A DNA stretch of 16,400 bases from Candidatus Eiseniibacteriota bacterium (GTDB lineage Bacteria > Eisenbacteria > RBG-16-71-46 > JABDJR01 > JAWXBZ01): NCBI GenBank assembly GCA_034440375.1, contig JAWXBZ010000258.1, forward strand, positions 1 through 16,400. Reading direction: 5' to 3'. The position numbers and the translations under genes are program-made. Positions 1 through 14,165 of this stretch are shown piece after piece. The notes beneath the pieces are model-generated. The model ran no database searches. It was not told where the DNA came from and saw only the letters and a list, made by a program, of their open reading frames with translations. Within the stretch, counting starts at the first letter, position 1. Each line of letters starts with the position of its first letter.

Positions 1-1963
1 CGCGCCGCGTATACGCGGCCACGTCGGATAGAATGGCGTTTCCGATCTGCTCCGCCGAATCTCCCCGGCGGGCCATCCCCGTAACCAGGGCGATCAACCG
101 TTCGTCACCGTACAGGTCAGCCCCCTGCGGTGCCTCGGTCACGCCATCCGAAAAGACAACGAGGACATCCCCGCGCCGAAAGGGCTGACGTCCTTCGTTG
201 TAGTCATCGATATCCATCAGGCCGAGCGGCAGACCGGTTGCCTCGAGAAGGACGACGTCGTCGGCGGTCACCAGGAACGGTGGATTGTGTCCGGCATTGC
301 AGAAGACGAGTTCCTCTTCGCTGGGAGACAGGGTCGCGAGAAAAAAGGTGGCGAAGCGGCCGCGCTCGACGGCCGTGTAAAGCGATCGATGCATGTGACG
401 GGCCATGTCGGCCGGGCTGGAGCTGTTCCGGGCCTCCACGTGAAGCGAGGCCCGGAGGTGTGACATCAAGAGCGAGGCGGAAACACCCTTTCCGGAAACA
501 TCCCCCAGCGCCACCAGGAGATCACCGTTCGGCCGGGGGATCCAGTCGAAGTAATCTCCGCCGACTTCCTGCGCCGGCATGTTGGTTCCAAATACGTCGA
601 GATCGGGAAGGTCCGGGGCTTGCTGGGGGAGGAGCTTCTGCTGAATGTCGCGGGCTAGTTGCAACTCGCGGTCCTGTTCGCCGGCATGTCGTTCCACGAA
701 AAAGAGTCGGAAGCTGCCGAGCGTGGCATAGACCAGGAACGGCAGCGTGGCGGGGAGGACCGACGGCATGTCGAGACGTCCCAGGGCCAGGCTGAAGAAG
801 GCCGTGGCCTGCCAGGCGACGGCGATGATCAGGACGCTGACGGCAGCCTGCAGCAGCGGACGGGTCATGACCAGCCAGCCGATCAACACGGTCGCCAGCG
901 TCCACAGGATCAGGAAGGTCGGCAACGAGACATGGCGCAGGAATCGACCTTCGAGGAGGGCGTCCAGGGCGTTGGCATGAACGTATACCAGCGGCGTCTT
1001 GTTGCTGAACGGTGTGGTCCCGATGTCGGCGGCGGCCTCGCCCACGGCGGTGTTGCCGACCAGCACGATCCGGTCCTGGAACGCCCGGCGAAGCAGCGAA
1101 TCCTGCCCGGAGCTGTACCACTGGACGACATCGAGCATCGAGTACTGGTTGGGAAAGGCATCCGAGTCGCCCGCGAAGTCGATGGCGGTGCCTCCCTCGC
1201 CATCGACCGGCATCTCGAGCCGCTCGCCATTCGCCCAGATGACGATGATGCCCCCGGGAGATCGTTCCGCCCGTGGCGGCTCTCTCTCTCCCCTGGCAAG
1301 GCCGATCATTCGAAGGGAGAGGGCAGGATAGACCCGATCGCGAAATCCGACCAGGAATGGGAGCCGACGGACAGGGCCGTCCTGGTCGAGCAGGACCGCT
1401 ACGTGCCCCAGCGCGTGGGAAGAGAAGAGAAGATCCTCGAACGGAAGGGCGATTTCGCTGGTCTGCCAGATGGGCAGCCCGGGGTTGGGAAAGCTGTCCA
1501 GCTTGAGGCGGGCGGCCCGATCATCCGGCAGGAAGTGCTCCGCTTCCAGGTTCGAATCCCGGGGGGGGAAGACGAAGGCGTGGACAACATTGGGAAACTC
1601 ACCGGTCAGGAGGGCCAGGGTCGAGTCGTCGGCTGCGTCGACGCGGTCGAACAGGAGGAGATCAAGACCGATGACGGCGGCCCCACCCTCACCCAGCGCA
1701 CCGATCAGCACCGCGTACTGGCTTCGGGGCAGCGGCCACCGGCCATAGGCCTCGATGGTCCGGTCGTCGATGGTCACCAGCGCGATGCGTGGCGAAGCAA
1801 GCTGTTTGCCGCGCAGCAGGTACCGGCCATCCCGAATCTTGAGGTCGGCCGTGCGGAAGACCCCCCCGACATGAAGAAGGCTGAGGACGGCCAGGCAGGC
1901 GATGGCGACCACGGTCCCCGCGATCAGGTGACGCGGATTTCGGCGTGCTCCGAGTTGGGGCAC
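1..1963 (-). CDS. CHASE2 sensor domain + transmembrane helices + SpoIIE/RsbU-type PP2C serine phosphatase (3' end runs off the window)
   Basis: Not in the ORF track. Hand translation from GTG at 1963 (7 nt after the upstream stop) is open to base 2. N-terminal TM (LIAGTVVAIACLAVLSLL). CHASE2 motifs: IALVTIDDRTIEAYGRWPLPR, GAAVIGLDLL, LGHVAVLLDQDGPVRRLP, FQDRIVLVGNTA, GTTPF, VYVHANALDALL. About three hydrophobic helices follow, then RELQLARDIQQKLLP and SpoIIE motifs EVGGDYFD, LGDVSGKGVSASLLM, CNAGHNPP, GLPLG, VVFSDGVTEA. Confidence 0.93.
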   Translation of the reverse strand, partial: MPQLGARRNPRHLIAGTVVAIACLAVLSLLHVGGVFRTADLKIRDGRYLLRGKQLASPRIALVTIDDRTIEAYGRWPLPRSQYAVLIGALGEGGAAVIGLDLLLFDRVDAADDSTLALLTGEFPNVVHAFVFPPRDSNLEAEHFLPDDRAARLKLDSFPNPGLPIWQTSEIALPFEDLLFSSHALGHVAVLLDQDGPVRRLPFLVGFRDRVYPALSLRMIGLARGEREPPRAERSPGGIIVIWANGERLEMPVDGEGGTAIDFAGDSDAFPNQYSMLDVVQWYSSGQDSLLRRAFQDRIVLVGNTAVGEAAADIGTTPFSNKTPLVYVHANALDALLEGRFLRHVSLPTFLILWTLATVLIGWLVMTRPLLQAAVSVLIIAVAWQATAFFSLALGRLDMPSVLPATLPFLVYATLGSFRLFFVERHAGEQDRELQLARDIQQKLLPQQAPDLPDLDVFGTNMPAQEVGGDYFDWIPRPNGDLLVALGDVSGKGVSASLLMSHLRASLHVEARNSSSPADMARHMHRSLYTAVERGRFATFFLATLSPSEEELVFCNAGHNPPFLVTADDVVLLEATGLPLGLMDIDDYNEGRQPFRRGDVLVVFSDGVTEAPQGADLYGDERLIALVTGMARRGDSAEQIGNAILSDVAAYTRR

Positions 1964-1970
1964 GGCGAAG

Positions 1971-2657
1971 CTAGCGACTCCAGTAGAGACTTGACGGCGC
2001 GGCGGCGCTCTCGTCGCCGCGGGGTCCGGCCGATCGCCAGGCTTGCGGCGTTCGTAAGGCCTTGTCCCGGGGCTTGCTCGGCGCTTTGACCGTTGCGGAA
2101 TCGCCAGGAGCGGGCGATGCCGGCACCTGCCGGGAGGCCTCCATGAGAAGCGCACGGACAGAGGCCTTGCTGAGGGTTCCACCCTCGGCGGCACGCTCCG
2201 CCGGAGCATCGGCCGAATCGCCATGAATGGCCATCAGGGCCGTGGCCTGTTCCACCCCGCCGGCCATCTCGATGGCACGCGAGGCCTCGCGCAGAGCACC
2301 GGCCTCGTCTCCCGCGGCCATCAACGCCACCGAGTGATTGATCGTCACGCCGGCGTCGGTGCTGTCGATCCCCAGCGCCCGAACGTAGAAGACCAGCGCC
2401 ACGTCGACGTCGTTCCGGAGGAAGTAGAGGTTGCCGATATTGTTCAGGGCGCCGGCATCTTGTGGCGCCAGGGAGAGCTGGGAAAGAAACGCCGTCTCCG
2501 CCTCGTCCAGCCGGCCGCCAAGAGCCAGCGAGATGCCGTACTCCCCGACCACGCCGGCGGCATTGCCGTCCGCCGGCTGGTCACTTCCCCGGGCGACCGC
2601 GACGGTGATCAGTCCGGCCAGGATCATGAGCGCACCCGCTCGACGTGTTCGCTTCAT
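1971..2657 (-). CDS. Exported tetratricopeptide-repeat protein, paralog of the C-terminal module of the upstream barrel protein
   Basis: 228 aa ORF. Strong SD (GAGGAGG) overlaps the upstream stop codon. Signal-peptide-like N-terminus MKRTRRAGALMILAGLITVAVARG. About three TPR units (e.g. APQDAGALNNIGNLYF, DAGVTINHSVALMAAGD). Ends LYWSR. Confidence 0.88.
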   Translation of the reverse strand: MKRTRRAGALMILAGLITVAVARGSDQPADGNAAGVVGEYGISLALGGRLDEAETAFLSQLSLAPQDAGALNNIGNLYFLRNDVDVALVFYVRALGIDSTDAGVTINHSVALMAAGDEAGALREASRAIEMAGGVEQATALMAIHGDSADAPAERAAEGGTLSKASVRALLMEASRQVPASPAPGDSATVKAPSKPRDKALRTPQAWRSAGPRGDESAAAPSSLYWSR

Positions 2658-2667
2658 CTCGACCTCC

Positions 2668-5184
2668 TCATGGCTTCCAGTACAGGTACTCGCGGAGCGC
2701 GTCCTCTCCCGCCCGGGCGGCGGCCACGCGCACGCCCTGCGGTTGCGGCGTGACCGCCGGTCGTTCCGGCGACAGACTGTCGGACGAGGCGGCGACGGTC
2801 GGAACGCGCTTCACTGCCTCGCGAAGCAGGCGCCGCACCTCTTCGGACGTGAGCCGTTTCTGGGCGGCACGTTCGTCGGGACGAGCCGGGATTCGGAGGA
2901 GTCTGGCCGCTTCCTTGTAACCGCCGGACAGTTCCAACCCTTGCACGACAGGATCCATCGCCTGACCGGAATCGCCGATGACATACCGGGCCAGGCCGAG
3001 ATTCAGCCAGATTCCCGCGTCGCGACGTTCCGTGTCAATTGCCTCGGCAAAGTAGTCGATGCTCCGCTCCAGTTCCCCAACGGCGGCGGCCACGACTCCC
3101 AGATTGTTGAGCAGGAGGGCCGAACCCGGAGCTCCCTCCAGCGCGGTTTCGAGCTGTCGGCGCGCCGCCTCGTAACGCCCGGAGCGGTACAGGAGTTCGG
3201 CCACCGTGCTCGCCGCCTGCGGCGACACAGCCGACGTGGCAGCCCCCCCGAAGCGTTCGGCGAGGAACTCGCTCCGTCGCGATGCCATCGTCGCGGTCTC
3301 CGCCGCGAAGAGTTCGTCAAACTTCCCGAGACGACCAAGGAACGCGGTCGAGGGTGTGCCGGGGAGTTCCGCCGGCAGGAAGGCGGCCTGCGAGGCCGCG
3401 ACATCCACCGTGTTGACGACATCCCGCGCCCGCCACGAGGCGTAGCTTTCGGCCCCGGCCGTCCAGGCCCCGGCGAAACCACGCGAGATCAGCGTGGTTT
3501 CGAGCGGAATCCAGATGGTCTCGTTCTCGACGACGTAGAGCGACTCGTCGACCGGAAGTCCCAGCCGGTTTCGCTCATGAACCCCCGAGTCGAACATGAG
3601 AAAGATATGCCCCGGCACGTCCACGAATCGAGTAGCGATCCCGAGGTTTTCCAGCAGGGAGCAAACCAGCACCGTGGTGTCGTCGCAATCGCCCACGCCG
3701 CTGGCCAGCGTTTCCCGTGGATAGTGGATCGTGTCGACGGCCCGCGATTCTTCCGAAATGGTCGCGAACGGATTGCTCGGGTCGGGAACGTAGGCCAGGC
3801 CGAGCGCCTGCAGCGCCGAAATCACCGCGGCGGCGAAGGATAGATTGCGATTTTGGAACGGGCCCGTTCCCGCCCGGGCCGCCTCGCCGGCGACCTGCCG
3901 GGCCAGGGCGTCCACAGCTGGATCACGCGTGGTGACGAAGGCTGCGGCCTGCTCCATGCCGCCGCCCCAGTTGATCGCGCCCGGAGCGTAGGCCAGGCAC
4001 TTGGAGTTTCGCTTCTCGGTCCGCGAGAGCCGGGCGCTCTGATAGGACACCGACACCTGGACCGGAACCTGGCGGTCGCCGGCCAGCTTCATGACCTTGT
4101 CGGACAGCACGGCGGGCAGCTCGATATCCAGCGAGGCTCGCGGCCTCAACAAGACTTCGGTCTCCGAGCGTTCATCCATCAGGTCGGGGAGCAGAAGCCC
4201 GACCCGGACCGTGAGCGGCGAGTCCTTGAGATTCCGCAGGCGCACGCGAGCCACCGGTTTCGTGTCGTACGACTTGTAGAGCGAGGTGTAGACCTCGTTG
4301 GCCTCCACCTGCTCGATTCGCACCTGGGCCGGATTGAAGTTGAAGGCAATGCCCAGATCGAAGTGGTTCGTCTCCCCCAGGTCGGGATGAAACTCGACGG
4401 CATAGTCAAACTTGATGATGCCCAGCCGGACGCCCGTGCCCGCGCTCCAGACGGTTCCCTCGGGGCCGCCGGTGTCATCCTGGAACCCGGCTCGAAACGC
4501 CAGGAAATCGACCGGGGAATACTCGACTCCGGCGTGGAGGCGATCGTCCAGATCCATTGCCAGCAGCAGGGGCTGGAACGGATTCCATGCGGCGGCCAGG
4601 CGAAGACTGCTCGGGTAGACGACCGTCGAGCCGACGTCCGAGTAATCGAGGCTGGTATCCTGGAAATCCTGGAGGACGACGCCGAGACGGGCGTGCTCGG
4701 AGAGAACGGTCATGAGCCCGAGGTCGAGTCCAAACCCCCGGCCGCTGCCGAGCGTCACGCCGTCCAGTCCGATGTTCCGTGACAGGTACTTCACGTTGAC
4801 CCCGACCGCCACGCGGCGATGCAGTCGCTGCGACCAGGCCAGGTCGAGACGATTCTCTCCGAAGTCAAGTTCGTTATCGTCGTACCCGTTGCTGTACCAG
4901 TCGAAGGCCGCAGCCTGGTCAGGCGTGAATGGAACGACGGCACCGATCACGTTCTGCTTGAGTCCGGTGCCGTAAAGATTCGCATGGGAACCGACCAGCT
5001 CCTGGTGCCCGAGCTGGCACAGCCCGGCCGGATTCCAGAAGATGGCCGATGCGTCGTCGGCCACGGCCGAATAGGCGCCGCCAAGGGCGATGGCGCGCGC
5101 TCCCATCGCCACCTGTTCCCGGGCCGCGGCGGCGGGCCCGGCAGTCAGCGCGAACAGGCCGGCGATCAGGACCGGCCGGATCAT
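2668..5184 (-). CDS. PorV/PorQ-family outer-membrane beta-barrel fused to an Ig-like domain, a transglutaminase-like cysteine-peptidase domain and TPRs
   Basis: 838 aa. Signal peptide, then the PorV/FadL-like N-terminal motif MGARAIALGGAYSAVADDASAIFWNPAGL and amphipathic strands ending NHFDLGIAF (~aa 281). Transglutaminase-like core: PRETLASGVGDCDD (Cys500), DVPGHIF (His526), WIPLETT (Glu562). C-terminal TPRs (LLNNLGVV, IWLNLGLARY). ATGA overlap with the upstream gene. Confidence 0.87.
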   Translation of the reverse strand: MIRPVLIAGLFALTAGPAAAAREQVAMGARAIALGGAYSAVADDASAIFWNPAGLCQLGHQELVGSHANLYGTGLKQNVIGAVVPFTPDQAAAFDWYSNGYDDNELDFGENRLDLAWSQRLHRRVAVGVNVKYLSRNIGLDGVTLGSGRGFGLDLGLMTVLSEHARLGVVLQDFQDTSLDYSDVGSTVVYPSSLRLAAAWNPFQPLLLAMDLDDRLHAGVEYSPVDFLAFRAGFQDDTGGPEGTVWSAGTGVRLGIIKFDYAVEFHPDLGETNHFDLGIAFNFNPAQVRIEQVEANEVYTSLYKSYDTKPVARVRLRNLKDSPLTVRVGLLLPDLMDERSETEVLLRPRASLDIELPAVLSDKVMKLAGDRQVPVQVSVSYQSARLSRTEKRNSKCLAYAPGAINWGGGMEQAAAFVTTRDPAVDALARQVAGEAARAGTGPFQNRNLSFAAAVISALQALGLAYVPDPSNPFATISEESRAVDTIHYPRETLASGVGDCDDTTVLVCSLLENLGIATRFVDVPGHIFLMFDSGVHERNRLGLPVDESLYVVENETIWIPLETTLISRGFAGAWTAGAESYASWRARDVVNTVDVAASQAAFLPAELPGTPSTAFLGRLGKFDELFAAETATMASRRSEFLAERFGGAATSAVSPQAASTVAELLYRSGRYEAARRQLETALEGAPGSALLLNNLGVVAAAVGELERSIDYFAEAIDTERRDAGIWLNLGLARYVIGDSGQAMDPVVQGLELSGGYKEAARLLRIPARPDERAAQKRLTSEEVRRLLREAVKRVPTVAASSDSLSPERPAVTPQPQGVRVAAARAGEDALREYLYWKP

Positions 5185-8100
5185 CGCCTCACCACCAGGG
5201 TCTGGGTCCGCGACTCGTCACCGGATTCCACTCGCACGAAGTAGAGTCCGTCGGTAACGACGGTGCCGTCATCGTCCCGCCCGTCCCAGCGGAGCAGGTT
5301 GATCCCGCTGGTCATCGGCACCTGGTGCGCCAATTCCCGCACCATCCGTCCGGCGCGGTTGAAGACACGCACGGTGGCTTCAGCCGACCGGCCGAGCGTG
5401 AAACTGATGGCCACCTGCCCCGGCGAGCCGCCGTCCGGCGTGAAGACGCGCGGGATGACGATCGGCCTCGAGAATTCGGATCCCCCGTCGGGAGGTGAAC
5501 CCTCGGGGAAGAGGGCGTATCGGCCGGGCTGATCGATGATGCCGACGATGCTGCCACCCGAACCGGCCGGACTCCCACCGAGTCGACTCCAGGAGAGGCC
5601 CTGGTCGATCGAACGGTGGAGCGTGAGCGGTTCGGTGACCGGACTTCCCGGCGACAGCTCGACAACGCCGGCCTTTTCCAGGCGCGGGTTCCCCCAATCG
5701 ATGTCCCAGGCCACCACGGGTGCGGCCCCTTCCGCCGGCCCTCCGGATTCCGGCGCGGGCTGGATCGTGACCACCGCATCCAGTGAGAAAGCCCGGGGGG
5801 GAAAGTAGAGGTGAACCTCTCCCCCGGTTGTGTAGACATCTCCGCCGGTGAAGGCCGCTATCCGGACAGGGGTTGTCACGTTGGCGAAGGGCGCCTCGTT
5901 GTCGACTACCAGTGACAACTGCGCGATTCCCGTCAGGCCCAGCGTGTCCTCCACGACCAGCCGCATCTCGTAATTGCCGTCGGGAAATTTTTGCGTATCC
6001 CAATCGGCCAGCGGGCCGAGTTCGATTGGCTCTGATCCCTCGTCCAGCCGGGTGACGGAGGGCCCGTCCCATGATGAGTGTTCGGCGGGACGCAGCTCCA
6101 GCCGGTAGTGGCGGAAACGGGGATCGGAGGCGGTCCCACGGACGACCTGCGCTCCCTGCACGGCCTGCCCGAATGCCGGCGCGGAAATGACGGCCGGCGG
6201 CGGCGTGGCGTCGACTTCGAACTCGAGCCGGGCCGGCGTCGGGTCCGCGTTGCGACTCCAGTCGCGAGCCTCGACCTCGAACAGGTGCCTCCCATCGGCC
6301 AGACCGAAGAACTCGGTGGTCACGTTGGGTGTCCAGTTGGAGGACTGGCTGTCCAGTGCGGACCGGTATTCGACGTCGGCGACCTCTCCATAACCGGCGG
6401 CGAAGACGAAGCGGACGTTTCGCGTCGCGGAAATGGCCGGGGGCGTTGAGACAAACACCGTCTGGGGCGCCGTCTCGTCCGGATCGTATTGCGAGATGCC
6501 GGAAAAGCTGCCGAACCAGAGGCGACCCCGGACATCCTCGAGGAAGTGGGATATTTGATCCGATACGAGGCCATCGCTGGTCGTGAACCGGTTCCAGCCG
6601 ACTCCGTTGAATCGAGCCAGCCCACCGAACGTGGCCACCCAGACCGTTCCGGAGCGGTCTCCGAAGATGCGGGTGACTGGCGTGGAGCCGAGCACGTCTC
6701 CGGCGTGGAGTTCGTGCGCTCCGGAGGACGGGAGGCGAAGGGCACCGTTCGACAGTCCGACCCAGATGTCACCGGACATCGTGCGGTAGATCGCTTCGGC
6801 GTCCTCAGTCGTCAACGGGGAGCGGGTCACGACACCGTCCCGCCAGACGCCGAATCCCCCGGCGGCGGCAATCCAGACCTCCCCGCCGGGCGCCGGAAAG
6901 AGGGCGCGAACGTCGGTGGTCCAGAGTCCGTCGGCGGGACCGAGCGCAACCGGCCCGGATGCGCCCGGTGCCATCCGAAACAGCCCGTCGGAGGTGCGCA
7001 GCCAGATGCCACCCGTCGAATCCTCCTGGATGGCATAGACTTGGACGTCGTAACCCACGACCGAGCGCGACAGGAAGGGTCGCCACGTGCCCCCGGACCG
7101 GGCGGCAACGCCCGCCGCTGTGCCGACCCAGGCGGTGCCAGCGCGATCCTCGTGGAGGGAGAGGACATTGTCGTCGGGGAGTACTCCAGGTCCACGCCAC
7201 GCGGTCCAGGTCACGCGGTCCGATTCCAGGATTGACACGCCGGCATATCGGCCGAATCCCGACACGTTCCCGCTGCCGAACCAGAGGCGGCCGCCCGAAT
7301 CGAGGAAGACCGAGCTCAGGGAGTCGGACAGGGACCGGCCGGCCGCGCGACGAAGAAACGTCCACCGACCGGATCGATCCAGCCTGGCAGCTCCTCGATC
7401 AGAGGTGGCGGCCCAGATTTCGCCGAACTGATCCTCCACGAGCCCTTGGACGCAGTTGCTGGCCAGGATCGGCTGGATGCGGCCGCCCAGCGCGGGGCGG
7501 GGCGAACAGTCGCTGAACCCTTCCGGCGCGATGAACCCCTGGATGTCGACCCGGTCGTATCGGAACAGGCCATTCGATTCGGTTCCGACCCACAGGTTTC
7601 TCGATCGGTCGACGAGGAGGGAAAAGACGCGTCCGAGAGGAAGCCCGTCCGTGGTCGTGGAGTAGGTTCGCCAGGTGCGACCATCGAAGTGGTCGATGCC
7701 GCGCGTCCCCCCGAACCAGACGCCGCCGACCTCATCGACATGAATCGCCAGAACGGTGGTGTTACGAAGTCCGTCCGCCTCCTGGAAGTGCTTCCACTCG
7801 GGCACTCCCGCCACGAGCCGCCACCGCCAGGCCCCCTGGTCGGTTCCAAACCAGATCCCGCCGGAAAGATCTTCGGCCATGGCAAGAACACTGTCGCGCC
7901 CAAGACCGTCGGGGTCGGCGCGAAAACTCTCCCAGCTCAACCGGTCCGGAGCGAGACGGCCGACTCCCTCGGGCGTGGCCACCCACAGGAATCGTTGGCT
8001 GTCCTCGAGCAGCCGCCAGGCGTTTGGATGTACGAGGCCGCCGGATTCGGGCTGAAACGTGGTCCATTGGCCGCCAGCGGCCTCCCGGCGAACCAGGCCA

Positions 8101-8543
8101 TTGGGCGTGCCGAACCAGAGATCACCGGCGTGATCCTCGAGAATGGCCTGAACGTTATCGCTTGGCAGATGCCCCGAGGCGACCGAAAAGATGCGGCGTT
8201 CCCTGGTCGCCTCGCGAAACTGAACTGCCCCTCCGCCCTGAATGCCAAACCAAAGAAATTGATCTTCTGTCTCCGTGATCGCCTGGACTACCGGGTTGGC
8301 GGTGCCCAGGTCCGGAGAAAGCCATCGAAAACCGTCGAAGCGGGAGGGCCCTCGCGGTGTACCAAACCAGAGGCTCCCCGTTCGATCTTCCAGGAGCGCC
8401 AGGACCTGTCCGTCGGCAAGGCCGTCGCGGGAGCCGCGATAGCTCTGCCATTCAGCCCGGAGTGGGGCGGCCGCGAACAGCGTCCATACCGCGGCCAGGG
8501 CGATCACTGCGGATCGCGGCTCACCTGTTCGGATGGGTTTCAT
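5181..8543 (-). CDS. Secreted two-component-regulator-type beta-propeller protein with Ig-like and ZU5-like domains and a FlgD-Ig/T9SS-like C-terminal domain
   Basis: The ORF is open from 8621. ATG 8543 gives a clean signal peptide (MKPIRTGEPRSAVIALAAVWTLFAAAPLRA|EW); ATGs at 8558 and 8582 are alternatives. About 15 Reg_prop repeats, a Y_Y_Y/Ig-like domain (GLADGRHLFEVEARD...DPTPA), a second Ig (WDTQKFPDGNYEMRLVVED) and a ZU5-like segment (GGDVYTTGGEVHLYFPPRAF). C-terminal domain IPRVFTPDGG...VRVFNRAGRMVREL...WDGRDDDGTVVTDGLYFVRV. No TM helix or kinase domain. Confidence 0.87.
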   Translation of the reverse strand: MKPIRTGEPRSAVIALAAVWTLFAAAPLRAEWQSYRGSRDGLADGQVLALLEDRTGSLWFGTPRGPSRFDGFRWLSPDLGTANPVVQAITETEDQFLWFGIQGGGAVQFREATRERRIFSVASGHLPSDNVQAILEDHAGDLWFGTPNGLVRREAAGGQWTTFQPESGGLVHPNAWRLLEDSQRFLWVATPEGVGRLAPDRLSWESFRADPDGLGRDSVLAMAEDLSGGIWFGTDQGAWRWRLVAGVPEWKHFQEADGLRNTTVLAIHVDEVGGVWFGGTRGIDHFDGRTWRTYSTTTDGLPLGRVFSLLVDRSRNLWVGTESNGLFRYDRVDIQGFIAPEGFSDCSPRPALGGRIQPILASNCVQGLVEDQFGEIWAATSDRGAARLDRSGRWTFLRRAAGRSLSDSLSSVFLDSGGRLWFGSGNVSGFGRYAGVSILESDRVTWTAWRGPGVLPDDNVLSLHEDRAGTAWVGTAAGVAARSGGTWRPFLSRSVVGYDVQVYAIQEDSTGGIWLRTSDGLFRMAPGASGPVALGPADGLWTTDVRALFPAPGGEVWIAAAGGFGVWRDGVVTRSPLTTEDAEAIYRTMSGDIWVGLSNGALRLPSSGAHELHAGDVLGSTPVTRIFGDRSGTVWVATFGGLARFNGVGWNRFTTSDGLVSDQISHFLEDVRGRLWFGSFSGISQYDPDETAPQTVFVSTPPAISATRNVRFVFAAGYGEVADVEYRSALDSQSSNWTPNVTTEFFGLADGRHLFEVEARDWSRNADPTPARLEFEVDATPPPAVISAPAFGQAVQGAQVVRGTASDPRFRHYRLELRPAEHSSWDGPSVTRLDEGSEPIELGPLADWDTQKFPDGNYEMRLVVEDTLGLTGIAQLSLVVDNEAPFANVTTPVRIAAFTGGDVYTTGGEVHLYFPPRAFSLDAVVTIQPAPESGGPAEGAAPVVAWDIDWGNPRLEKAGVVELSPGSPVTEPLTLHRSIDQGLSWSRLGGSPAGSGGSIVGIIDQPGRYALFPEGSPPDGGSEFSRPIVIPRVFTPDGGSPGQVAISFTLGRSAEATVRVFNRAGRMVRELAHQVPMTSGINLLRWDGRDDDGTVVTDGLYFVRVESGDESRTQTLVVRR
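6483..8424 (-). repeat. About 15 tandem Reg_prop beta-propeller blade repeats (protein level)
   Basis: Recurring L-x-x-x-x-V-x-x-I/L-x-ED-x-x-G-x-L/IW-F/V-G/AT-x-x-G units, e.g. LPSDNVQAILEDHAGDLWFGTPNGL, LPDDNVLSLHEDRAGTAWVGTAAGV, LVSDQISHFLEDVRGRLWFGSFSGI. Confidence 0.85.
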
Positions 8544-8955
8544 GCGAGTGTCGGGCATCCTGAAATACCCCGCCGGGTCCATTGATTCACTGCCGGCAAA
8601 GGCGGCTCCACCTGGGGGCAAGCGTGAAAATCCCCCCCATGTCAGGTCGCCTCGGCGCGGTTGGCTCTCATCTGCTTAGAAGGACCGACCCTGTCCCAGT
8701 TGGTTGACTCCGAATCAGACCGTGCCTGTCATTTATTCCTGCCCCATGCGGAGTGGCACGTCATCGTGAGGGGCGGGGCAGAACAACCCAAGGCGGCCGG
8801 CCGACTGCCAGGTGCGCATTTGACTCCATCTTCCATCAGGGTAGCGGCCCGAGGCGGGAGATGATTCGTTCCGGATCGAGCCGGATCATGCTACATCGCT
8901 GTGACGACGGCAAGACAAACTGGGCCACTGGAGTGACGCTTTCGCGGAGAACCGA

Positions 8956-9741
8956 TCAGCAGGCCCGGATCGGCTTCACTGCACCCACCTTCACCGACAC
9001 GACCGAGTCGAACGCCGCGCGCTCCGGGCTGTCGGCCGGTAACGAATCAACACCAACGTCGTAGCGACTCTCGTTGAGGACTTCGACCGAGGCCAGTCCA
9101 GCCTCCCGCATCATGCCAAGGTACTCCTCCTTCATCGAGGCGCCGGCAACGCAACCAATGTAGAGATCGACCGACTTCTGCATCTCCAAAGTCAGCGGTC
9201 GCGTCAGCACCAGGTCACTGACCAGCAGGCGACCGCCGGGCTTCAGCACCCGGAAGGCTTCGCGAAACACCTGCGGCTTGTCCGGCGACAGGTTGATGAC
9301 GCAATTCGAGATGATCAGATCCACGCTCGAGTCGGCCACCGGCAGATGCTCGATCTCCCCGAGACGGAATTCGATGTTGGCCTCGGCGACCTTCGTGGCG
9401 TTGGCGCGGGCTTTCGCCAGCATCGCCGGCGTCATGTCGACACCGATGACCCGGCCGGTCGGCCCTACCTCGCGCGCGGCCAGAAAACAGTCAATGCCCG
9501 CCCCCGAACCAAGGTCAAGGACCGTCTCGCCCGGTTTCACCTCCGCCAGGGCCAGAGGATTTCCGCATCCAAGCCCGAGGTTCGCGCCTTCGGGAATGGC
9601 CGAGGCCTGCTCGGCGGAATAGCCGATCTCGGTCAGCACGTCGGTGCCGCACGAGCCACCGCAGCAGCCGGTCCCCGAGGGGCGGCCCTCGGCGATGGCC
9701 CCGTACTTCTCGCGGACGACTTCACGAATGTCTTCGCTCAC
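8956..9741 (-). CDS. arsM: Arsenite S-adenosylmethionine methyltransferase
   Basis: 261 aa, GTG start overlapping the arsR stop (GTGA). Motifs: N-terminal [19 protein letters not shown] motif [43 protein letters not shown]. Confidence 0.93.
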
Positions 9742-10085
9742 TTTCCTTCTCCTTTCCGTGGCTCCACCAAGGAGCCCAGTTCCTCGAACAGCTCACGCAA
9801 TCTCCTGAGTCCAGACGCATCGACGCAATAACAGACGCGGGGGCCGTCAATTTCGCCCTGGATGAGTCCGGCCTCCTTCAGCACCTTGAGATGCTGTGAA
9901 ACGGTCGCCTGGGCGAGCGGCAATTCATCGACAATTGCACCGCAGACACACTCACCCCGGCGGATCAGCAGCCTCAGGATGGCCACCCGCGCGGGATGGC
10001 CGAGCGCCTTGGCCAGCCGGCCAAGTTCAATATCGCGGGGCCGCGCCGACTGGCGCGAGGCGGAGGATCGAGAGTCTGGTTTCAT
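9738..10085 (-). CDS. arsR: ArsR/SmtB-family metalloregulatory repressor
   Basis: 115 aa. [12 protein letters not shown], metal-site-like [27 protein letters not shown], wing GPRVCYC. Directly upstream of arsM. Confidence 0.92.
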
Positions 10086-10429: not shown

Positions 10430-10741
10430 GGCCAGAACGGGTCAGGGCATGACACGCACCTTCGGGTCACAACGCCGGCCCGGCCAGGGGCCTGATAGAC
10501 TATGTCCTCAATGGCCAGTCCGGCCGGATTCCTGAGCCCAAATTGCGAGGTCGCCACCCACCCCCTGGAGATCAACAACCTGTGCCGCAACAGTTTGGCC
10601 TGCAGCCTCGTCGCCGCCATCATTCTGACGCTTCCCGCCCTCTCCCCCTGGATCAAGTTGCGGTAGGATTCCACCCCTCTTACCAAATGGGCCGCACGCG
10701 GCGCCCCTGACATTTCAGCCACGAAAGTGACGGATCCCGGC

Positions 10742-12307
10742 ATGGCAATCACGAGCAACTTCATGAAAATCCTTGGCCTCACCGATAAACATGCCGGCGG
10801 ATTTGCCGGTGAGTGGATCGGTTCAGGCCCGGTCCTTGCGGTCACCTCTCCGATCGACGGTTCAACCATCGGCTCGGTGACGCAGGTGACCGAAGCGGAA
10901 TATGACCAGATCGTGACCCGGGCCCATGCGGCATTTCTGGAGTGGCGCAAGCTGCCGGCGCCCCGGCGCGGGGAAATCGTCCGACGGCTCGGCAATCGCC
11001 TGCGCGATCTGAAGACTGAACTGGGGCAGCTCGTCACCCTTGAGATGGGCAAGGTCACCTCCGAGGGTGAGGGCGAAGTTCAGGAGATGATCGACATCTG
11101 CGATTTCGCCACCGGCCTGTCGCGCCAGCTCTACGGCCTCACGATGCACTCGGAGCGGCCGGACCACCGCATGTACGAGCAGTGGCATCCGCTCGGCGTT
11201 GTCGGCGTCATCAGCGCCTTCAACTTTCCGGTGGCGGTCTGGAGTTGGAACGCCGCCATCGCGGCCGTCTGCGGCGATTCAACCGTCTGGAAACCGGCCA
11301 GCAAGACACCCCTGACCGCCATCGCCTGTACGCGGATTGCGGAACAGGTATGCCGGGAGAGTGGCGTCGATCCGGCGGTTTTCTCGCTGACCATCGGCAA
11401 GGGTTCCACCGTGGGCGACCGGATGCTGCATGACCGTCGCGTGCCGCTGGTATCGGCCACCGGCAGCTGCAAGATGGGCGAGCGGGTTGCCCAGGTCGTC
11501 AATGGCCGTTTTGGCCGGACGATCCTCGAACTCGGCGGGAACAACGCCATCGTCGTGACCCCCAACGCCAACATGGATCTGGCCCTGCGGGCCATCCTGT
11601 TCGGCGCCGTGGGTACGGCCGGGCAGCGCTGCACCTCCACGCGCCGGATCATCGCCCACGAATCGATCAAGAAGGCGCTGGTTCAGCGACTTGTGAAAGC
11701 CTACGAAGGAATCCCGATCGGCGATCCGCGCAAGGCATCGACCCTGATGGGGCCGCTCGTCACCCACGAGGCTGTTTCCGATATGCAGAAGGCCATCGAG
11801 CGGCTGAAGGCCGAAGGCGGCACGGTGGTGTACGGCGGCGATGTTCTGAGCGGCGCCGATTTTCCCGGCGGGCATTACGTCAAGCCCTGTATCGCCCTGG
11901 CCCGGAACGAATACCAGATCGTCCAGGATGAAACCTTCGCGCCGATTCTGTACATCATCGGATATGGCTCGAAGAGTTCATCCCCGGCCGAAGCCATCAA
12001 GGAACTCGATGAGGCCCTGGCACTCCACAACGGGGTGCCGCAGGGCCTCTCGTCGTCCATCTTCACCGACAACATGCGCGAGGCCGAAATTTTTCTATCG
12101 TATCAAGGCTCCGACTGCGGCATCGCCAACGTCAACATCGGCACCAGTGGGGCGGAAATCGGCGGCGCCTTCGGGGGCGAAAAGGATACCGGTGGCGGCC
12201 GCGAATCGGGCTCCGACGCCTGGAAGGTGTACATGCGACGCCAGACCAACACCATCAACTGGAGCACCAGCCTGCCGCTGGCCCAGGGGGTCAAGTTCGG
12301 AGATTGA
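10742..12307 (+). CDS. amaB: Aldehyde dehydrogenase family 7 (antiquitin / L-piperideine-6-carboxylate dehydrogenase, AmaB/Pcd-like)
   Basis: ALDH7 signatures: EGEGEVQEMIDICDFATGLSRQLYG, EQWHPLGVVGVISAFNFPVAVWSWN, catalytic Glu in LELGGNNA, catalytic Cys in GTAGQRCTSTRR, VNIGTSGAEIGGAFGGEKDTGGGRESGSDAWK, LPLAQG. Start could be 10727, 10742 or 10763. Confidence 0.9.
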   Translation: MAITSNFMKILGLTDKHAGGFAGEWIGSGPVLAVTSPIDGSTIGSVTQVTEAEYDQIVTRAHAAFLEWRKLPAPRRGEIVRRLGNRLRDLKTELGQLVTLEMGKVTSEGEGEVQEMIDICDFATGLSRQLYGLTMHSERPDHRMYEQWHPLGVVGVISAFNFPVAVWSWNAAIAAVCGDSTVWKPASKTPLTAIACTRIAEQVCRESGVDPAVFSLTIGKGSTVGDRMLHDRRVPLVSATGSCKMGERVAQVVNGRFGRTILELGGNNAIVVTPNANMDLALRAILFGAVGTAGQRCTSTRRIIAHESIKKALVQRLVKAYEGIPIGDPRKASTLMGPLVTHEAVSDMQKAIERLKAEGGTVVYGGDVLSGADFPGGHYVKPCIALARNEYQIVQDETFAPILYIIGYGSKSSSPAEAIKELDEALALHNGVPQGLSSSIFTDNMREAEIFLSYQGSDCGIANVNIGTSGAEIGGAFGGEKDTGGGRESGSDAWKVYMRRQTNTINWSTSLPLAQGVKFGD

Positions 12308-12593: not shown

Positions 12594-12890
12594 CTACCCC
12601 CCCGCAATCGCCCCCACCACCAGCAACGGTTCCGCGCCGGAAACGATGGGCTCCGGCAATGGCGCGTCCGGTGATTCGTGGGACCAGTCTTCCTGGCAGG
12701 CGAAGAAGCGCAGGAAGTCCCGGCGCTTCAGTGTGACATGGTCGCGAATCGTCCCACGCAGCACGGGATAGCGGGCCTCGAGCGTGTCGAGGACCGATCG
12801 GAGTGTGATCGGTGCCTCGACATCGAGTTCCACCTCGCCCTCGACGCGCGCCAGGGTCCGCAGGTGCGCGGGCAGTTCCACCCGGATCAT
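12594..12890 (-). CDS. MoaD/ThiS-family ubiquitin-like (beta-grasp) protein
   Basis: 98 aa. [28 protein letters not shown]-terminal AIAGG-stop. ATGA overlap with the upstream BNR gene. Confidence 0.9.
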
Positions 12891-14002
12891 GCCAGCGTCT
12901 GGACCTCGACGGACAGCACCGCGGGGAGATCGCGCACGATGGCCGTCCAGTTATCGCCGGAGTCGGTGGATGCGTACACCTGACCGCCGGTGGTGCCGAA
13001 GTAAATGCCGCACGAATCGAGCTGGTCGACAGCCATGGCATCGCGCAGCACGTTCACGTAGCAATCGCTCTGCGGCAACCCCTTGGTGAGCGCTTCCCAT
13101 TCGTTGCCGCCGGTTCGGCTGCGGTAGACACGTAGCTTGCCCTCGGGCGGAAAGTGCTCCGAGTCGTTCTTGATCGGAACGACATAAATGGTTTCCGGCT
13201 CGTGGGCGTGCACATCAATTGGAAATCCGAAATCGGTCGGCAGGTTGCCGCTGACTTCGTGCCATGAATCGCCGGCGTCGTCGCTGCGCATGACGTCCCA
13301 GTGCTTCTGCATGAACAGCACGTTCGGCCGCGAGGGGTGCAAGGCGATGCGATGAACGCAGTGGCCGATTTCGGCGTCCGGGTCGGGAATGTACTGGGAC
13401 CTGAGCCCCTTGTTGATCGGCTTCCAGGTGGTGCCGCCGTCCTCGGTGCGGAAAGCGCCAGCGGCCGAGATGGCGATGAAGATCCGCTGGGGATTGGTCG
13501 GGTCGATCAGAATGGTGTGCAGCCCCAGGCCCCCGGCGCCCGGCGACCACTGCGGACCCGTATTGTGATTGCGCAGTCCCGACATTTCATGCCACGACGC
13601 GCCACCGTCGGTCGTGCGGAACATGGCCGCGTCCTCCACGCCGGCGTAGACCATGTCCGGATCGGTCAGCGACGGCTCCAGGTGCCATACCCGCTTGAAC
13701 TCCCATGGATGCTGCGTGCCGTCGAACCACTGGTGCGTGCCGGGAATGCCGTCATAAACGAATTTATTGTCGACCGGCTCCCAACTTTTGCCGCCGTCGT
13801 TGGAGCGCTGGATCATCTGCCCGAACCAACCGCTGCACTGGGAGGCGTACAGGCGATCCGGATCCACCGGTGAACCCTTGACGTGATACATCTCCCAGCC
13901 CGCGAACAGCGGGCCTTCGACCCCCCACTTCATGCGCATGGCATCCGATGTCAGGACAAACGCGCCCTTCTTGGTTCCGACGAGAACTCGAACGGTGCTC
14001 AC
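12887..14002 (-). CDS. Cytoplasmic BNR/Asp-box beta-propeller (sialidase-like, WD40/YVTN/BNR family)
   Basis: The true start is probably GTG 14002 ([26 protein letters not shown]), giving 371 aa. Six Asp-box-like motifs: [54 protein letters not shown]. No signal peptide. Confidence 0.9.
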
Positions 14003-14145
14003 GATGACTCCTTCCTGATCCGCGCGGTGGTCGCGCGCCGCCTGACCCGGGAACTTCCGATGGGCGCGGATCCTACCAGCGGTCCACTCGCCGATGCTAT
14101 TATCCCTGACCTTGGAAACGCCGGTGGCGGCCCAATTTTTACACC

Positions 14146-14154
14146 TGTTACAAT
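14146..14154 (+). promoter_or_regulatory. Extended -10 promoter element for the kinase gene
   Basis: TG-t-TACAAT in an AT-rich patch, 11 nt before ATG 14166. No SD between them. Confidence 0.55.
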
Positions 14155-14165
14155 CGGATCTCCCC

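Follow-up and report, generated by a model that had tools for sequence, protein, structure and literature searches.

The locus analysed here raises the question of whether four adjoining genes, called A to D below, make up one signalling route across the whole cell envelope or are neighbours with separate roles. The window, i.e. the whole stretch of DNA analysed, is an entire 16.4-kb contig of a 94%-complete MAG (G000). All four genes, and all features within them, lie on the minus strand: A at 5181..8543 (1120 aa from the ATG, with TTG at 8621 as an alternative start), B at 2668..5184 (838 aa), C at 1971..2657 (228 aa) and D at 2..1963. Gene D runs off the contig end, so that 654 of 669 residues fall in the window; the complete protein (669 aa) was read from a longer metagenome contig (L069) that is identical to the window contig (0 mismatches in 13,184 bases). 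The GTG start of D is backed by orthologues whose N-terminus (MPP...) falls at the same alignment column.

The genes had been described from the sequence as co-directional and tightly coupled, and the three junctions, read directly in the sequence, bear this out. A and B share an ATGA stop/start overlap (5181..5184). At the B/C junction (2658..2670) the B stop TGA (2670-2668) lies inside GGAGG, 10 nt ahead of the C ATG (2657), and a 7-nt gap (1964..1970) separates the C stop TAG (1973-1971) from the D start GTG (1963). The four-gene observation, with the domain content given below, is confirmed.

A secreted double propeller and a PorV-like barrel

The product of gene A (5181..8543) consists of a signal-peptide-like N-terminus, a double Reg_prop propeller, an Ig-like stalk and a type-A T9SS C-terminal domain (CTD). 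The propeller head (residues ~40-700; 6444..8426) scores 169 bits with Reg_prop and matches by sequence the PDB entries 4a2l (E 3.6e-35), 3v9f and 3ott, which are periplasmic sensor domains of hybrid two-component systems from Bacteroides. The stalk (residues 761-1030; 5454..6263) is conserved, with tblastn identities of 36-48% to cassette orthologues, and is single-copy, i.e. no further copy was found in G000. The CTD (residues 1031-1120; 5184..5453) is recognised by TIGR04183 (26.1 bits, cut-off 23) and by FlgD_ig (35.6 bits). A propeller with a T9SS-like cargo tail, as originally predicted, is what the domain searches return.

Mean identity to the orthologues rises from 33% in the propeller to 43% in the stalk and 47.5% in the CTD (30/30 loci). 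In other words, the head is the least and the CTD the best conserved part of A, and the CTD is about as conserved as the barrel of B (47.8%). Most cassette orthologues align to the CTD of A with 84-100 bits, whereas no other CTD hit in G000 exceeds 61 bits (94 CTD hits there, A itself counted). A-type genes stand singly or in tandem runs of up to 4, and their heads diverge.

Gene B (2668..5184) encodes an outer-membrane barrel, a periplasmic beta-sandwich, a transglutaminase-fold domain, TPRs and an LYWK tail. The beta-barrel (residues ~25-285; 4330..5112) belongs to the PorV/PorQ superfamily: the match to NF033709 (PorV_fam; E 2.4e-23) spans profile positions 9-326 of 326 at 83.3 bits, just under the curated cut-off of 90. 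In the AF2 model of B (mean pLDDT 80.4) the best solved folds for the barrel are PorV (6h3i_F, E 5e-8, TMt 0.56) and 8gl6_F, then FadL.

At least part of a T9SS is encoded in the genome. SprA and PorU, which had been proposed as search targets, are both present in G000, and the CTD-bearing PorU is followed by a PorV-like barrel gene, i.e. the same order of CTD protein and barrel as in A-B; two more CTD-gene/barrel-gene pairs were found. The GldK and GldM models had no matches in this 94%-complete MAG, and the GldM model gave no match in its control either. In P. gingivalis, CTD-bearing surface proteins are held on PorV/PorQ-family barrels (PorZ:PorQ, PorU:PorV); PorZ, itself a double propeller, is a homologue of BT4663 (PMC5562754). 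The original prediction took the binding and shuttling of CTD cargo by PorV as its model; the barrel kinship stands, and stable anchoring of the PorZ:PorQ and PorU:PorV kind is a closer model for A and B than shuttling. The PorQ and PorV barrels serve cargo attachment rather than signalling and, unlike B, are not known to have a periplasmic enzyme or TPR extension.

This likeness also suggests that A and B could be the equivalent, in this lineage, of the T9SS attachment complex (PorZ/PorQ), acting in cargo processing, with C and D as unrelated neighbours. A has the architecture of PorZ, with two propellers and a CTD (NF052228, E 3e-23), the B barrel is in the PorV/PorQ family, and no protein in G000 reaches the PorZ cut-off. 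However, A and B miss the equivalog models widely (PorZ 82 against a cut-off of 260 bits, PorQ 23 against 220, PorV 26 against 250). Moreover, SprA occurs in 41/41 class relatives whereas the full-length B family occurs in 3/41, each time adjoining CHASE2, so A and B are not a core secretion part. Considering also the regular presence of C and CHASE2 after B (see below), we regard such a role as very improbable.

The predicted periplasmic arm, the TPR paralogue and the CHASE2 phosphatase

Behind the barrel, B continues with an Ig-like beta-sandwich and a transglutaminase-fold alpha/beta domain (residues 291-640; 3265..4314), for which an AF2 domain model was obtained with pLDDT 91.5 and pTM 0.90. 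VIA-align placed this model closest to 3kd4, a putative protease (Z 10.3), followed by TglA (9.2), PNGase (8.6), LapG (8.6) and 3isr (8.3). Transglut_core scores 21.3 bits, just under its curated cut-off of 23. A profile of the beta-sandwich/transglutaminase-fold domain matches 1,747 50%-clusters at E<=1e-30. The invariant GDCDD motif contains the putative nucleophile, Cys500 (codon at 3685..3687, translation checked). Neither C500 nor H526 varies among the aligned sequences (22/22 and 19/19), and E562 is invariant in 22/22 and at least 90% conserved in a wider set. The TPR array (residues ~650-765; 2890..3237) is found by Pfam TPR families and appears as helical repeats at 655-762 in the model. 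The conserved C-terminal tail (2671..2709) ends in LYWKP, with W836 invariant and Y835 nearly so, and beyond a disordered linker the model gives its final 8 residues a pLDDT of 84. B homologues form at least 238 90%-clusters, and among those listed nearly all full-length ones are ~850 aa long. The predicted combination of PorV-type barrel, protease-like domain and TPRs is thus borne out by NF033709, Transglut_core, Pfam TPR and the AF2 folds.

Gene C encodes an exported TPR protein (Pfam TPR) that is paralogous to residues 665-836 of B (33% identity). Its tail is of the same kind as that of B (WRSAGPR...LYWSR), with Y225 and W226 invariant and WRSAG conserved. Gene D encodes an inner-membrane sensor and is the sole CHASE2 gene in G000; its CHASE2 domain (residues 22-362; 878..1900) scores 163 bits and its cytoplasmic SpoIIE-type PP2C output 141 bits, the latter resembling Rv1364c, RssB and SpoIIE. 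The domain searches bear out what had been predicted for both genes. The partner-switching role that had been suggested for the phosphatase is locally unsupported: no STAS/RsbW genes lie within 4 kb beyond D on the longer contig, and none was found in the 5.5 kb after D at 17 loci (Pfam on 32 of 65 called ORFs). STAS/RsbW genes are present elsewhere in G000.

The protease-like fold could point to the opposite direction of control, in which D and C would govern the B protease, and the latter would process, release or retain A as an adhesin or enzyme. The Lap system, which runs inside-out from c-di-GMP, likewise has a periplasmic transglutaminase-fold Cys/His domain genetically tied to inner-membrane signalling and surface proteins. 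In structure, 138 residues of the B domain align with LapG of Legionella, a periplasmic transglutaminase-like protease (Z 8.6), with marginal sequence similarity (18% identity in the aligned region). Other putative proteases superpose as well, and the Cys and His residues of the domain are invariant. Tandem genes with diverging heads, as seen for A, are also frequent in adhesin families. Unlike LapG, the B domain is barrel-anchored; the outputs and fused forms described below bear further on this reading.

Conservation, output exchange and fused forms

Neighbourhood analysis of the 838-aa B protein, suggested with the original prediction, was positive. A B homologue is directly followed by C and a CHASE2 gene in 67/76 informative loci, with all three on the same strand in 44/48 informative metagenome and 23/28 informative genome loci; these loci are not independent, since one MAG or near-duplicate contigs account for several of them and Eisenbacteria for most. 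Since the same order recurs to this extent elsewhere, the A-B-C-D arrangement is not due to chance. A gene with a CTD precedes B, ending less than 500 nt from it, in 35/49 metagenome and 24/31 genome loci. In three loci (L017, L018, L022) the A-like gene stands just after D instead, and two (L023, L034) have no A-like gene in the available sequence. B occurs without C-D alongside in L021, L037, L040 and L135, and on one complete chromosome 1.9 Mb separate C-D from an A-A-B locus. Taken with the domain matches, the conserved neighbourhood supports the predicted composition, envelope placement and functional linkage of the four products.

That the CHASE2 gene may carry a SpoIIE, kinase or cyclase output was anticipated correctly: the output is PP2C in 47 loci, Pkinase in 13 and cyclase in 1, and is cut off in 6. 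The kinase-type sensors group together (support 100/99). A same-strand ECF sigma hit was found in 7/13 kinase-type loci versus 0/47 PP2C-type loci, and in L015, L016 and L035 the ECF sigma gene (Pfam-confirmed) directly follows the sensor.

The ECF sigma genes recall the PorA-PorXY-SigP system of P. gingivalis, in which a T9SS cargo signals to an inner-membrane sensor: periplasmic binding of the PorA CTD to PorY sets off an ECF sigma cascade (PMC12152298). By analogy, the TPR proteins and CHASE2 might read the CTD of A while it is still periplasmic and so report T9SS traffic or jamming, and the CTD is indeed the best conserved part of A. Yet a double propeller of 700 residues and of sensor type, which moreover diversifies and is duplicated, is more than a reporter cargo would need, and the cassette is found in only 3/41 T9SS-bearing relatives. 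PorY, a histidine kinase, contacts the CTD directly, and neither a barrel fusion nor CHASE2 is known to take part. We consider secretion surveillance unlikely, also in view of the fused forms.

In other phyla a single polypeptide adjoining CHASE2 combines the propeller with the protease-like/TPR module. L046 has a Reg_prop propeller, a transglutaminase-fold domain and TPRs in one chain, followed by CHASE2, and in L044, L149 and L150 a chain of NHL propeller, fn3, transglutaminase-fold domain and TPRs comes directly after a CHASE2 cyclase. Among 16 long family members sampled, six have Reg_prop (five of them also Y_Y_Y) and five have NHL heads. These fused forms lack the barrel and stand in phyla where no CTD or barrel was seen, yet the CHASE2 link is kept, which speaks against a CTD-reading role.

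The same data weigh against inside-out control. A head fused to the protease-like domain beside CHASE2 fits poorly with the head as a released substrate, the head of A belongs to a known ligand-sensor family, and the exchange of cytoplasmic outputs (PP2C, kinase with ECF sigma, cyclase) behind a constant CHASE2 fits an outside-in sensor. Control of A by D is in our opinion doubtful, and no more probable than surveillance.

A possible route from the surface to the cytoplasm

On balance, we favour the reading that the four genes are one trans-envelope sensory cassette, with the A head sensing at the surface and D giving the output in the cytoplasm. A would be an HTCS-type sensor head carried to the cell surface by the T9SS and held there on the dedicated PorV/PorQ-like barrel of B, as PorZ is by PorQ and PorU by PorV. 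B would continue in the periplasm as the beta-sandwich, the Cys/His (protease-like) domain, the TPR array and the LYWK tail, while C would be a free periplasmic copy of the TPR-plus-tail module that pairs with D. The periplasmic arm of B and the adaptor C would then feed the CHASE2 domain of D, which may contact them, read the state of the complex and alter the activity of the cytoplasmic PP2C phosphatase. The relay might be conformational or might proceed via cleavage by the Cys/His domain, e.g. of the LYWK tails. Fusion places the head and the transglutaminase-fold domain in the same compartment, whereas the proposed split model puts the outer membrane between them; in the split form a signal would therefore have to pass through or around the barrel.

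The ligand may be glycan-like. BT4663 of Bacteroides binds heparin (PMC5562754), and the BT4663 and BT4673 sensor domains are sequence homologues of the A head from the same Reg_prop family, which in those two proteins binds glycan fragments. Their propellers are fused to an inner-membrane kinase, whereas those of A are a separate T9SS cargo.

Literature searches found no published description of the four-gene cassette, and its conserved linkage across many uncultured bacteria points to an undescribed signal route across the whole cell envelope. The Sinorhizobium meliloti precedent cited in the original prediction is real: signalling to the CHASE2 cyclases CyaK and CyaD depends on the outer-membrane protein NsrA (PMC13001267, PMC7529298), and we found no other outer-membrane partner of CHASE2 with experimental support. 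In S. meliloti a beta-barrel protein of the outer membrane is needed for inner-membrane CHASE2 enzymes (CyaK, CyaD1, CyaD2) to respond to an external signal, in that case a protein. The word TPR is absent from the text of the NsrA paper examined. The output is a cyclase there and PP2C here, and the NsrA barrel is the C-terminal half (residues 600-1200) whereas that of B is N-terminal and PorV-type. Unlike the cassette, the NsrA system is not described as having a T9SS cargo, a transglutaminase-fold domain or an LYWK adaptor.

CHASE2 cyclase genes clustered with genes for FecR-domain and TPR proteins have been reported from Campylobacterota and a Phyllobacterium plasmid, and one pathway was proposed (bioRxiv 2022.03.11.484041). 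As in the cassette, the CHASE2 gene has as neighbours genes for a TPR protein and for a partner that is exported or lies in the outer membrane; the partner there has a FecR domain, with no known PorV-like barrel, transglutaminase-fold domain or secreted propeller. Among our loci, a FecR gene directly precedes the CHASE2 cyclase gene in L148, and likewise in L064.

Layout of the four genes and their predicted products

The window comprises one entire contig (16.4 kb) of a MAG (genome G000, 3.96 Mb in 264 contigs). Its minus strand carries four consecutive genes: A (8543..5181, 1120 aa), a propeller protein with a T9SS tail; B (5184..2668, 838 aa), a barrel/enzyme-like/TPR protein; C (2657..1971, 228 aa), a small TPR protein; and D (1963..2, 654 aa, truncated where the contig stops), a CHASE2-SpoIIE protein. 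The translational coupling that was originally claimed for this cassette is borne out at each junction: A and B share an ATGA overlap, the stop of B lies inside a GGAGG 10 bases ahead of the next ATG, and a 7-nt gap is followed by the GTG start of D, which is backed by the N-termini of orthologues. A longer, identical metagenome contig (L069; 0 mismatches in 13,184 bases) completes D to 669 aa; the gene that comes next there is a long ORF (1239 aa or more) that weakly resembles BNR, and is neither STAS nor RsbW. A promoter and terminator scan of window positions 1-9100, uninformative for this phylum, gave no sigma-70-like site and one terminator-like site (174-159), i.e. below the level of shuffled sequences.

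Protein A has a hydrophobic N-terminus, many Reg_prop repeats (PF07494, 169 bits), a FlgD_ig domain (35.6 bits, cut-off 27) and, at the C-terminus, a type-A T9SS sorting domain (TIGR04183, 26.1 bits, cut-off 23). By sequence its head is homologous to the domains with which the hybrid two-component sensors (HTCS) of Bacteroides bind ligands in the periplasm (4a2l, E 3.6e-35). From these signals we infer that A is an exported T9SS cargo with a predicted surface location. Its predicted architecture is PorZ-like, yet A is not classed as PorZ and scores below the equivalog cut-off (NF052228, 82.1 against 260 bits). The stalk is single-copy in G000. In all 30 of the 30 loci that have a full-length A beside B, conservation is lowest in the propeller head, with a mean identity of 33%, as compared to 43% for the stalk, 47.5% for the C-terminal domain (CTD) and 47.8% for the barrel of B, i.e. 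the CTD matches the barrel. Moreover, the CTD of A scores 84-100 bits against most cassette orthologues and at most 61 bits against other CTDs of G000. Such a pattern is consistent with a conserved docking part that bears a variable head for sensing, and is not in itself proof of docking.

The N-terminal barrel of B (residues 25-285) matches NF033709 with full profile coverage (E 2.4e-23; 83.3 bits, cut-off 90), and its closest solved folds are those of PorV, 6h3i_F (E 5e-8, TMt 0.56) and 8gl6_F (AF2 model, pLDDT 80). The protein stays well under the PorV and PorQ equivalog cut-offs (NF033710, 26.1 against 250 bits; NF033711, 23.2 against 220 bits), and judging by these scores we call the barrel PorV-like, not PorV or PorQ proper. 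The barrel is followed by an Ig-like beta-sandwich, an alpha/beta enzyme-like domain, a TPR array, a disordered linker and a conserved LYWK tail.

The enzyme-like domain is single-copy in G000. Pfam places Transglut_core on residues ~405-600 with 21.3 bits, as compared to a gathering score of 23. Folded alone, the domain reaches a pLDDT of 91.5, and VIA-align matches the model to 3kd4 (Z 10.3), 9crn (9.2), 2f4o (8.6), 4fgo (8.6) and 3isr (8.3), i.e. to transglutaminase-fold putative proteases, TglA, PNGase and LapG. Foldseek returned no match at E<=1e-3 for this domain, only weak ones with E of at least 2e-3, and the PDB sequence search with the B profile found TPR proteins only. On the strength of the model, residues ~405-600 are assigned a predicted papain-like transglutaminase fold. 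Neither C500 (in GDCDD) nor H526 varies in the two alignments; E562 is unchanged in 22 of 22 sequences and conserved to at least 90% in the wider set. By analogy, C500, H526 and E562 form a putative catalytic triad, and the invariance of Cys and His speaks for a putative enzyme in the periplasmic arm of B. It is noted that residues 347-599 (window 3388-4146) weakly match the N-terminal part of the NCBIfam model of the anti-phage protein ProA (E 4e-11; 41 bits, cut-off 1500); this may reflect a shared domain and implies no membership.

Protein C is an exported paralogue of the C-terminal third of B, with TPR, a linker and a WRSAGPR...LYW(K/S)R tail. In the model of B (ma6cdc29cc412), the last 8 residues (831-838, the LYWKP tail) are placed with a pLDDT of 84 after ~35 residues at pLDDT <50, which points to an intramolecular docking site in the model. 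Since the tails are common to B and C and that of B is modelled confidently, they are candidate substrates or docking peptides. The tail is not universal in the family: it is absent from the barrel-less or divergent homologues at four loci (L042, L044, L046 and L048).

Protein D is the sole CHASE2 protein found encoded in G000 (PF05226, 163 bits). As read from the sequence, one hydrophobic segment precedes CHASE2 (residues 13-36) and three follow it (~348-424). The cytoplasmic SpoIIE/PP2C domain (PF07228) reaches 141 bits with the part that the window encodes; for the full-length protein of L069 the score is 156 bits, over profile positions 2-191 of 192. The domain resembles Rv1364c, RssB and SpoIIE. 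Structure prediction of C 25-228 with the periplasmic CHASE2 of D 37-346 (20-row alignments) gave 0.01 against a mark of 0.32, which is evidence neither for nor against contact.

The original prediction saw in the phosphatase a part of a partner-switching module, and the neighbouring genes do not bear this out: STAS or RsbW genes were found neither within 4 kb past D on L069 nor in the 32 scanned of 65 downstream ORFs at 17 loci. Partner switching may still operate, because six STAS ORFs and RsbW-like genes are present elsewhere in G000, among them a STAS/RsbW pair on contig C11. Another candidate partner was a Ser/Thr kinase with C-terminal TPR at window 14094-16400 (+), which extends past the contig end. 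It shares 41% identity with a kinase-TPR gene two genes past the CHASE2-PP2C gene in locus L027, and has the architecture of the kinase that replaces CHASE2 after C in locus L122. It was dropped as a conserved feature, as a Pkinase gene occurs in the available flanks of only 2 of 43 PP2C-type loci.

Type IX secretion parts in the genome

SprA and PorU, whose presence had been anticipated, were both found in G000, SprA with 535 bits summed (cut-off 200) and PorU with 520.5 bits (cut-off 420). For the PorK/L/M/N-type motor and ring genes, the GldK and GldM models had no match in this 94%-complete MAG; the GldM control matched no genome, and the result is uninformative for this phylum. Dozens of ORFs bear a CTD (94 tblastn matches to the CTD of A). 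The PorU gene is directly followed by a PorV-like barrel gene (contig C196:26443-31085), and two more pairs of a CTD gene and a barrel gene are present (C241:7052-8522 and C188:2766-3892), spaced by 63-170 nt. In other words, a CTD protein followed by its barrel is a recurring layout in this genome. Some PorV-like barrels have long C-terminal extensions, with open frames of 560-800 aa across the class. Taken by sequence, the class appears to have expanded dedicated cargo/barrel pairs.

Conservation, output exchange and fusions

Barrel-only matches are present in 41 of 41 genomes (G000 and 40 class relatives), and so is SprA. The full B architecture is found in only three of the 41 (G000, G012 and G026), and in each of them C and a CHASE2-SpoIIE gene come next. 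The presence of SprA throughout and of full B in three genomes indicates that the cassette is accessory and not a secretion component.

Loci were mapped by tblastn with segments of A-D of about one domain each, together with kinase, cyclase and ECF sigma queries. A genome scan with one genome per species gave 34 loci, and a metagenome scan gave 79, one of which, the window's own contig, was set aside. For the downstream count we used only loci with at least 2,400 bases past the enzyme-like domain, which drops 6 of 34 and 30 of 78 loci. The expectation that the neighbourhood of B would be conserved was upheld: C and CHASE2 directly follow B on the same strand in 23 of 28 genome loci and 44 of 48 metagenome loci, counts in which the loci are not independent (some are from the same MAG or near-duplicates) and the thresholds are of our own choice. 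Upstream of B, the end of a CTD gene lies no more than 500 nt away in 24 of the 31 genome loci and 35 of the 49 metagenome loci that could be judged; in L017, L018 and L022 an A-like gene stands after D instead.

The cassette is separable into an A-B pair and a C-D pair. In L021, which is on a complete chromosome, C and D are found as a pair 1.9 Mb from B, and L037 and L040 are additional A-B copies, whose MAG has the full cassette as well. L044 has a CHASE2 cyclase upstream, and in L048, L135 and L144 C and CHASE2 do not follow B. The other exceptions are L113 and L122, where the gene after C encodes a Ser/Thr kinase that lacks CHASE2, a Pkinase-TPR protein in the case of L122.

An exchange of CHASE2 outputs between SpoIIE, kinase and cyclase had been predicted and is indeed seen: 47 loci have SpoIIE as the cytoplasmic domain behind CHASE2, 13 have Pkinase and one (L141) has a cyclase, and in 6 the domain is cut off. 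The kinase-type sensors form one well-supported group in the CHASE2 tree (100/99). A same-strand ECF sigma match occurs at 7 of the 13 kinase-type loci and at 0 PP2C loci; directly after the sensor it is confirmed by Pfam in L015, L016 and L035. A Hanks kinase is described as phosphorylating an ECF43-type sigma directly (PMC13147305). As to Fec-type cell-surface signalling, no TonB-dependent receptor or FecR domain was found in A-D, and ECF sigma accompanies the kinase-type variants only.

Outside Eisenbacteria the enzyme-like domain occurs without the barrel. On a Rokubacteria contig, Reg_prop propellers, the enzyme-like domain and TPR make up one 1242-aa protein, followed by CHASE2. In the order of L044 (a Gallionellaceae MAG) the domain was found in 3 of the 101 genomes searched, and in all three it belongs to an NHL-propeller/fn3/enzyme/TPR protein of ~1,250-1,300 aa, encoded immediately behind a CHASE2 cyclase. 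Both copies in a Myxococcales MAG adjoin a Ser/Thr kinase. The profile of the domain matches 6,063 50%-clusters at E<=1e-3 and 1,747 at E<=1e-30. Among 16 sampled long members the head is Reg_prop in 6 (5 with Y_Y_Y), NHL in 5, ankyrin in 1, and TPR only in 4. The fused architectures argue that head, enzyme-like domain and TPR are one functional unit. On this sequence comparison, Eisenbacteria would have divided the unit into A and B, with the T9SS tail on one half and the PorV-like barrel on the other.

A different pairing was noticed in a MAG labelled Brevinema andersonii (L042, 612-12289), where the gene of a 3125-aa FG-GAP/Big_5 protein that ends in a FlgD_ig tail stands directly before that of a divergent B homologue, i.e. 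barrel, enzyme-like domain and TPR without the LYWK tail; the locus covers 1.3 kb of downstream sequence. This is another type of cargo, on a barrel fusion of the kind seen in B.

The class relatives have six other CHASE2 genes. Their upstream partners are an M48 peptidase in two cases, FecR in one, an unknown protein of ~310 aa in two and an unknown protein of 826 aa in one; peptidase partners beside CHASE2 thus recur (2 of six). These cases suggest that an exported partner beside CHASE2 is the rule. The CHASE2 cyclases L062 and L065 (genomes G008 and G020) and L064 (G011) each have a different exported partner ahead (M48, FecR and the ~310-aa unknowns).

A possible signalling route and its nearest relatives

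The interpretation given in the original prediction is the best available for the gene content and the co-inheritance, and the observation behind it is real. We take the cassette to be a new form of CHASE2 signalling aided by the outer membrane, with parts taken over from type IX secretion. Established domain identities, placement signals, co-inheritance, output exchange and fusions are its basis, and the coupling of B to CHASE2 is here a genetic one, i.e. the conserved adjacency of the barrel gene and the CHASE2 gene. We consider it likely that B, C and D belong to a single pathway. In the route that we propose, A would be exported by the T9SS and retained at the surface by the barrel of B, as PorZ is by PorQ and PorU by PorV. 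The periplasmic arm of B, together with C, would contact the CHASE2 domain of D, and the signal would run outside-in and end at the phosphatase. As a whole, this picture is somewhat favoured.

In a wider reading, the beta-sandwich/transglutaminase-fold/TPR module would be a general, unrecognised input device of many CHASE2 sensors, in which the variable head (Reg_prop, NHL, ankyrin or TPR) binds the stimulus and the Cys/His domain turns binding into a covalent or proteolytic event, e.g. on the LYWK tails of B and C, that is read by CHASE2. Eisenbacteria would then have moved the head through the outer membrane by means of the T9SS tail and given the enzyme arm a PorV-like barrel. We regard this reading as rather unlikely. 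If true, it would be the first known route in which a type IX cargo on a PorV-like barrel signals to an inner-membrane sensor.

The closest case studied by experiment is NsrA with CyaK/CyaD (PMC13001267, PMC7529298); the domain make-up of NsrA, as far as these sources describe it, is unrelated to that of B. The closest published genomic observation is the CHASE2/FecR/TPR cluster of Campylobacterota (bioRxiv 2022.03.11.484041). PorZ:PorQ is the closest structural analogy for A:B, PorZ being described as kept by PorQ and PorU by PorV (PMC5562754), and PorA-PorY is reported as a case in which a T9SS cargo can signal to an inner-membrane sensor (PMC12152298). For the enzyme arm of B, whose predicted fold matches LapG, the closest analogy is LapG/LapD. 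None of these five systems has the composition of the cassette. In LapG/LapD, a signalling protein of the inner membrane is coupled to a transglutaminase-fold enzyme of the periplasm. In line with the original statement that no system of this composition is described, no paper joining CHASE2 and T9SS, nor one on Eisenbacteria and type IX secretion, was found in a search of mostly open-access main texts. In the text open to searching, CHASE2 with transglutaminase gave unrelated work only, and CHASE2 with outer membrane gave nothing on this system.

CHASE2 is a widespread sensor domain whose ligands are, to our knowledge, largely unknown. The single studied case requires an outer-membrane partner; the cassette is a second partner type, with an architecture conserved across at least 1,747 50%-identity clusters of the enzyme-like domain, and it supplies a plausible, predicted ligand-binding head. 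The fused, split and output-swapped versions are natural experiments that make the question of the CHASE2 input directly testable. In this uncultured Eisenbacteria genome, moreover, the cassette carries the only CHASE2 gene found. The data further suggest that PorV-like barrels and T9SS tails are reused outside secretion proper, in order to place a sensor on the cell surface.

DNA near-identical to window 1-8700 (at least half of the sampled words) is present in six sequencing runs (X1-X6), each of which carries the label microbial mat metagenome and the date 2018; they may be one campaign, and two of them may underlie the assembly. Elsewhere in the window, an aldehyde dehydrogenase gene (10727-12307, +) and a gene for a BNR/sortilin-like repeat protein (12887-14185, -) have no evident link to the cassette. 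Upstream of A on the same strand there is a gene for an ArsR-type HTH regulator (9738-10085, -), followed by one for a SAM-dependent methyltransferase with a Cys-rich N-terminus (8956-9741, -), and ~410 nt of non-coding DNA separate the latter from A. The two genes (8956-10085) may be an arsenite-methylation pair.
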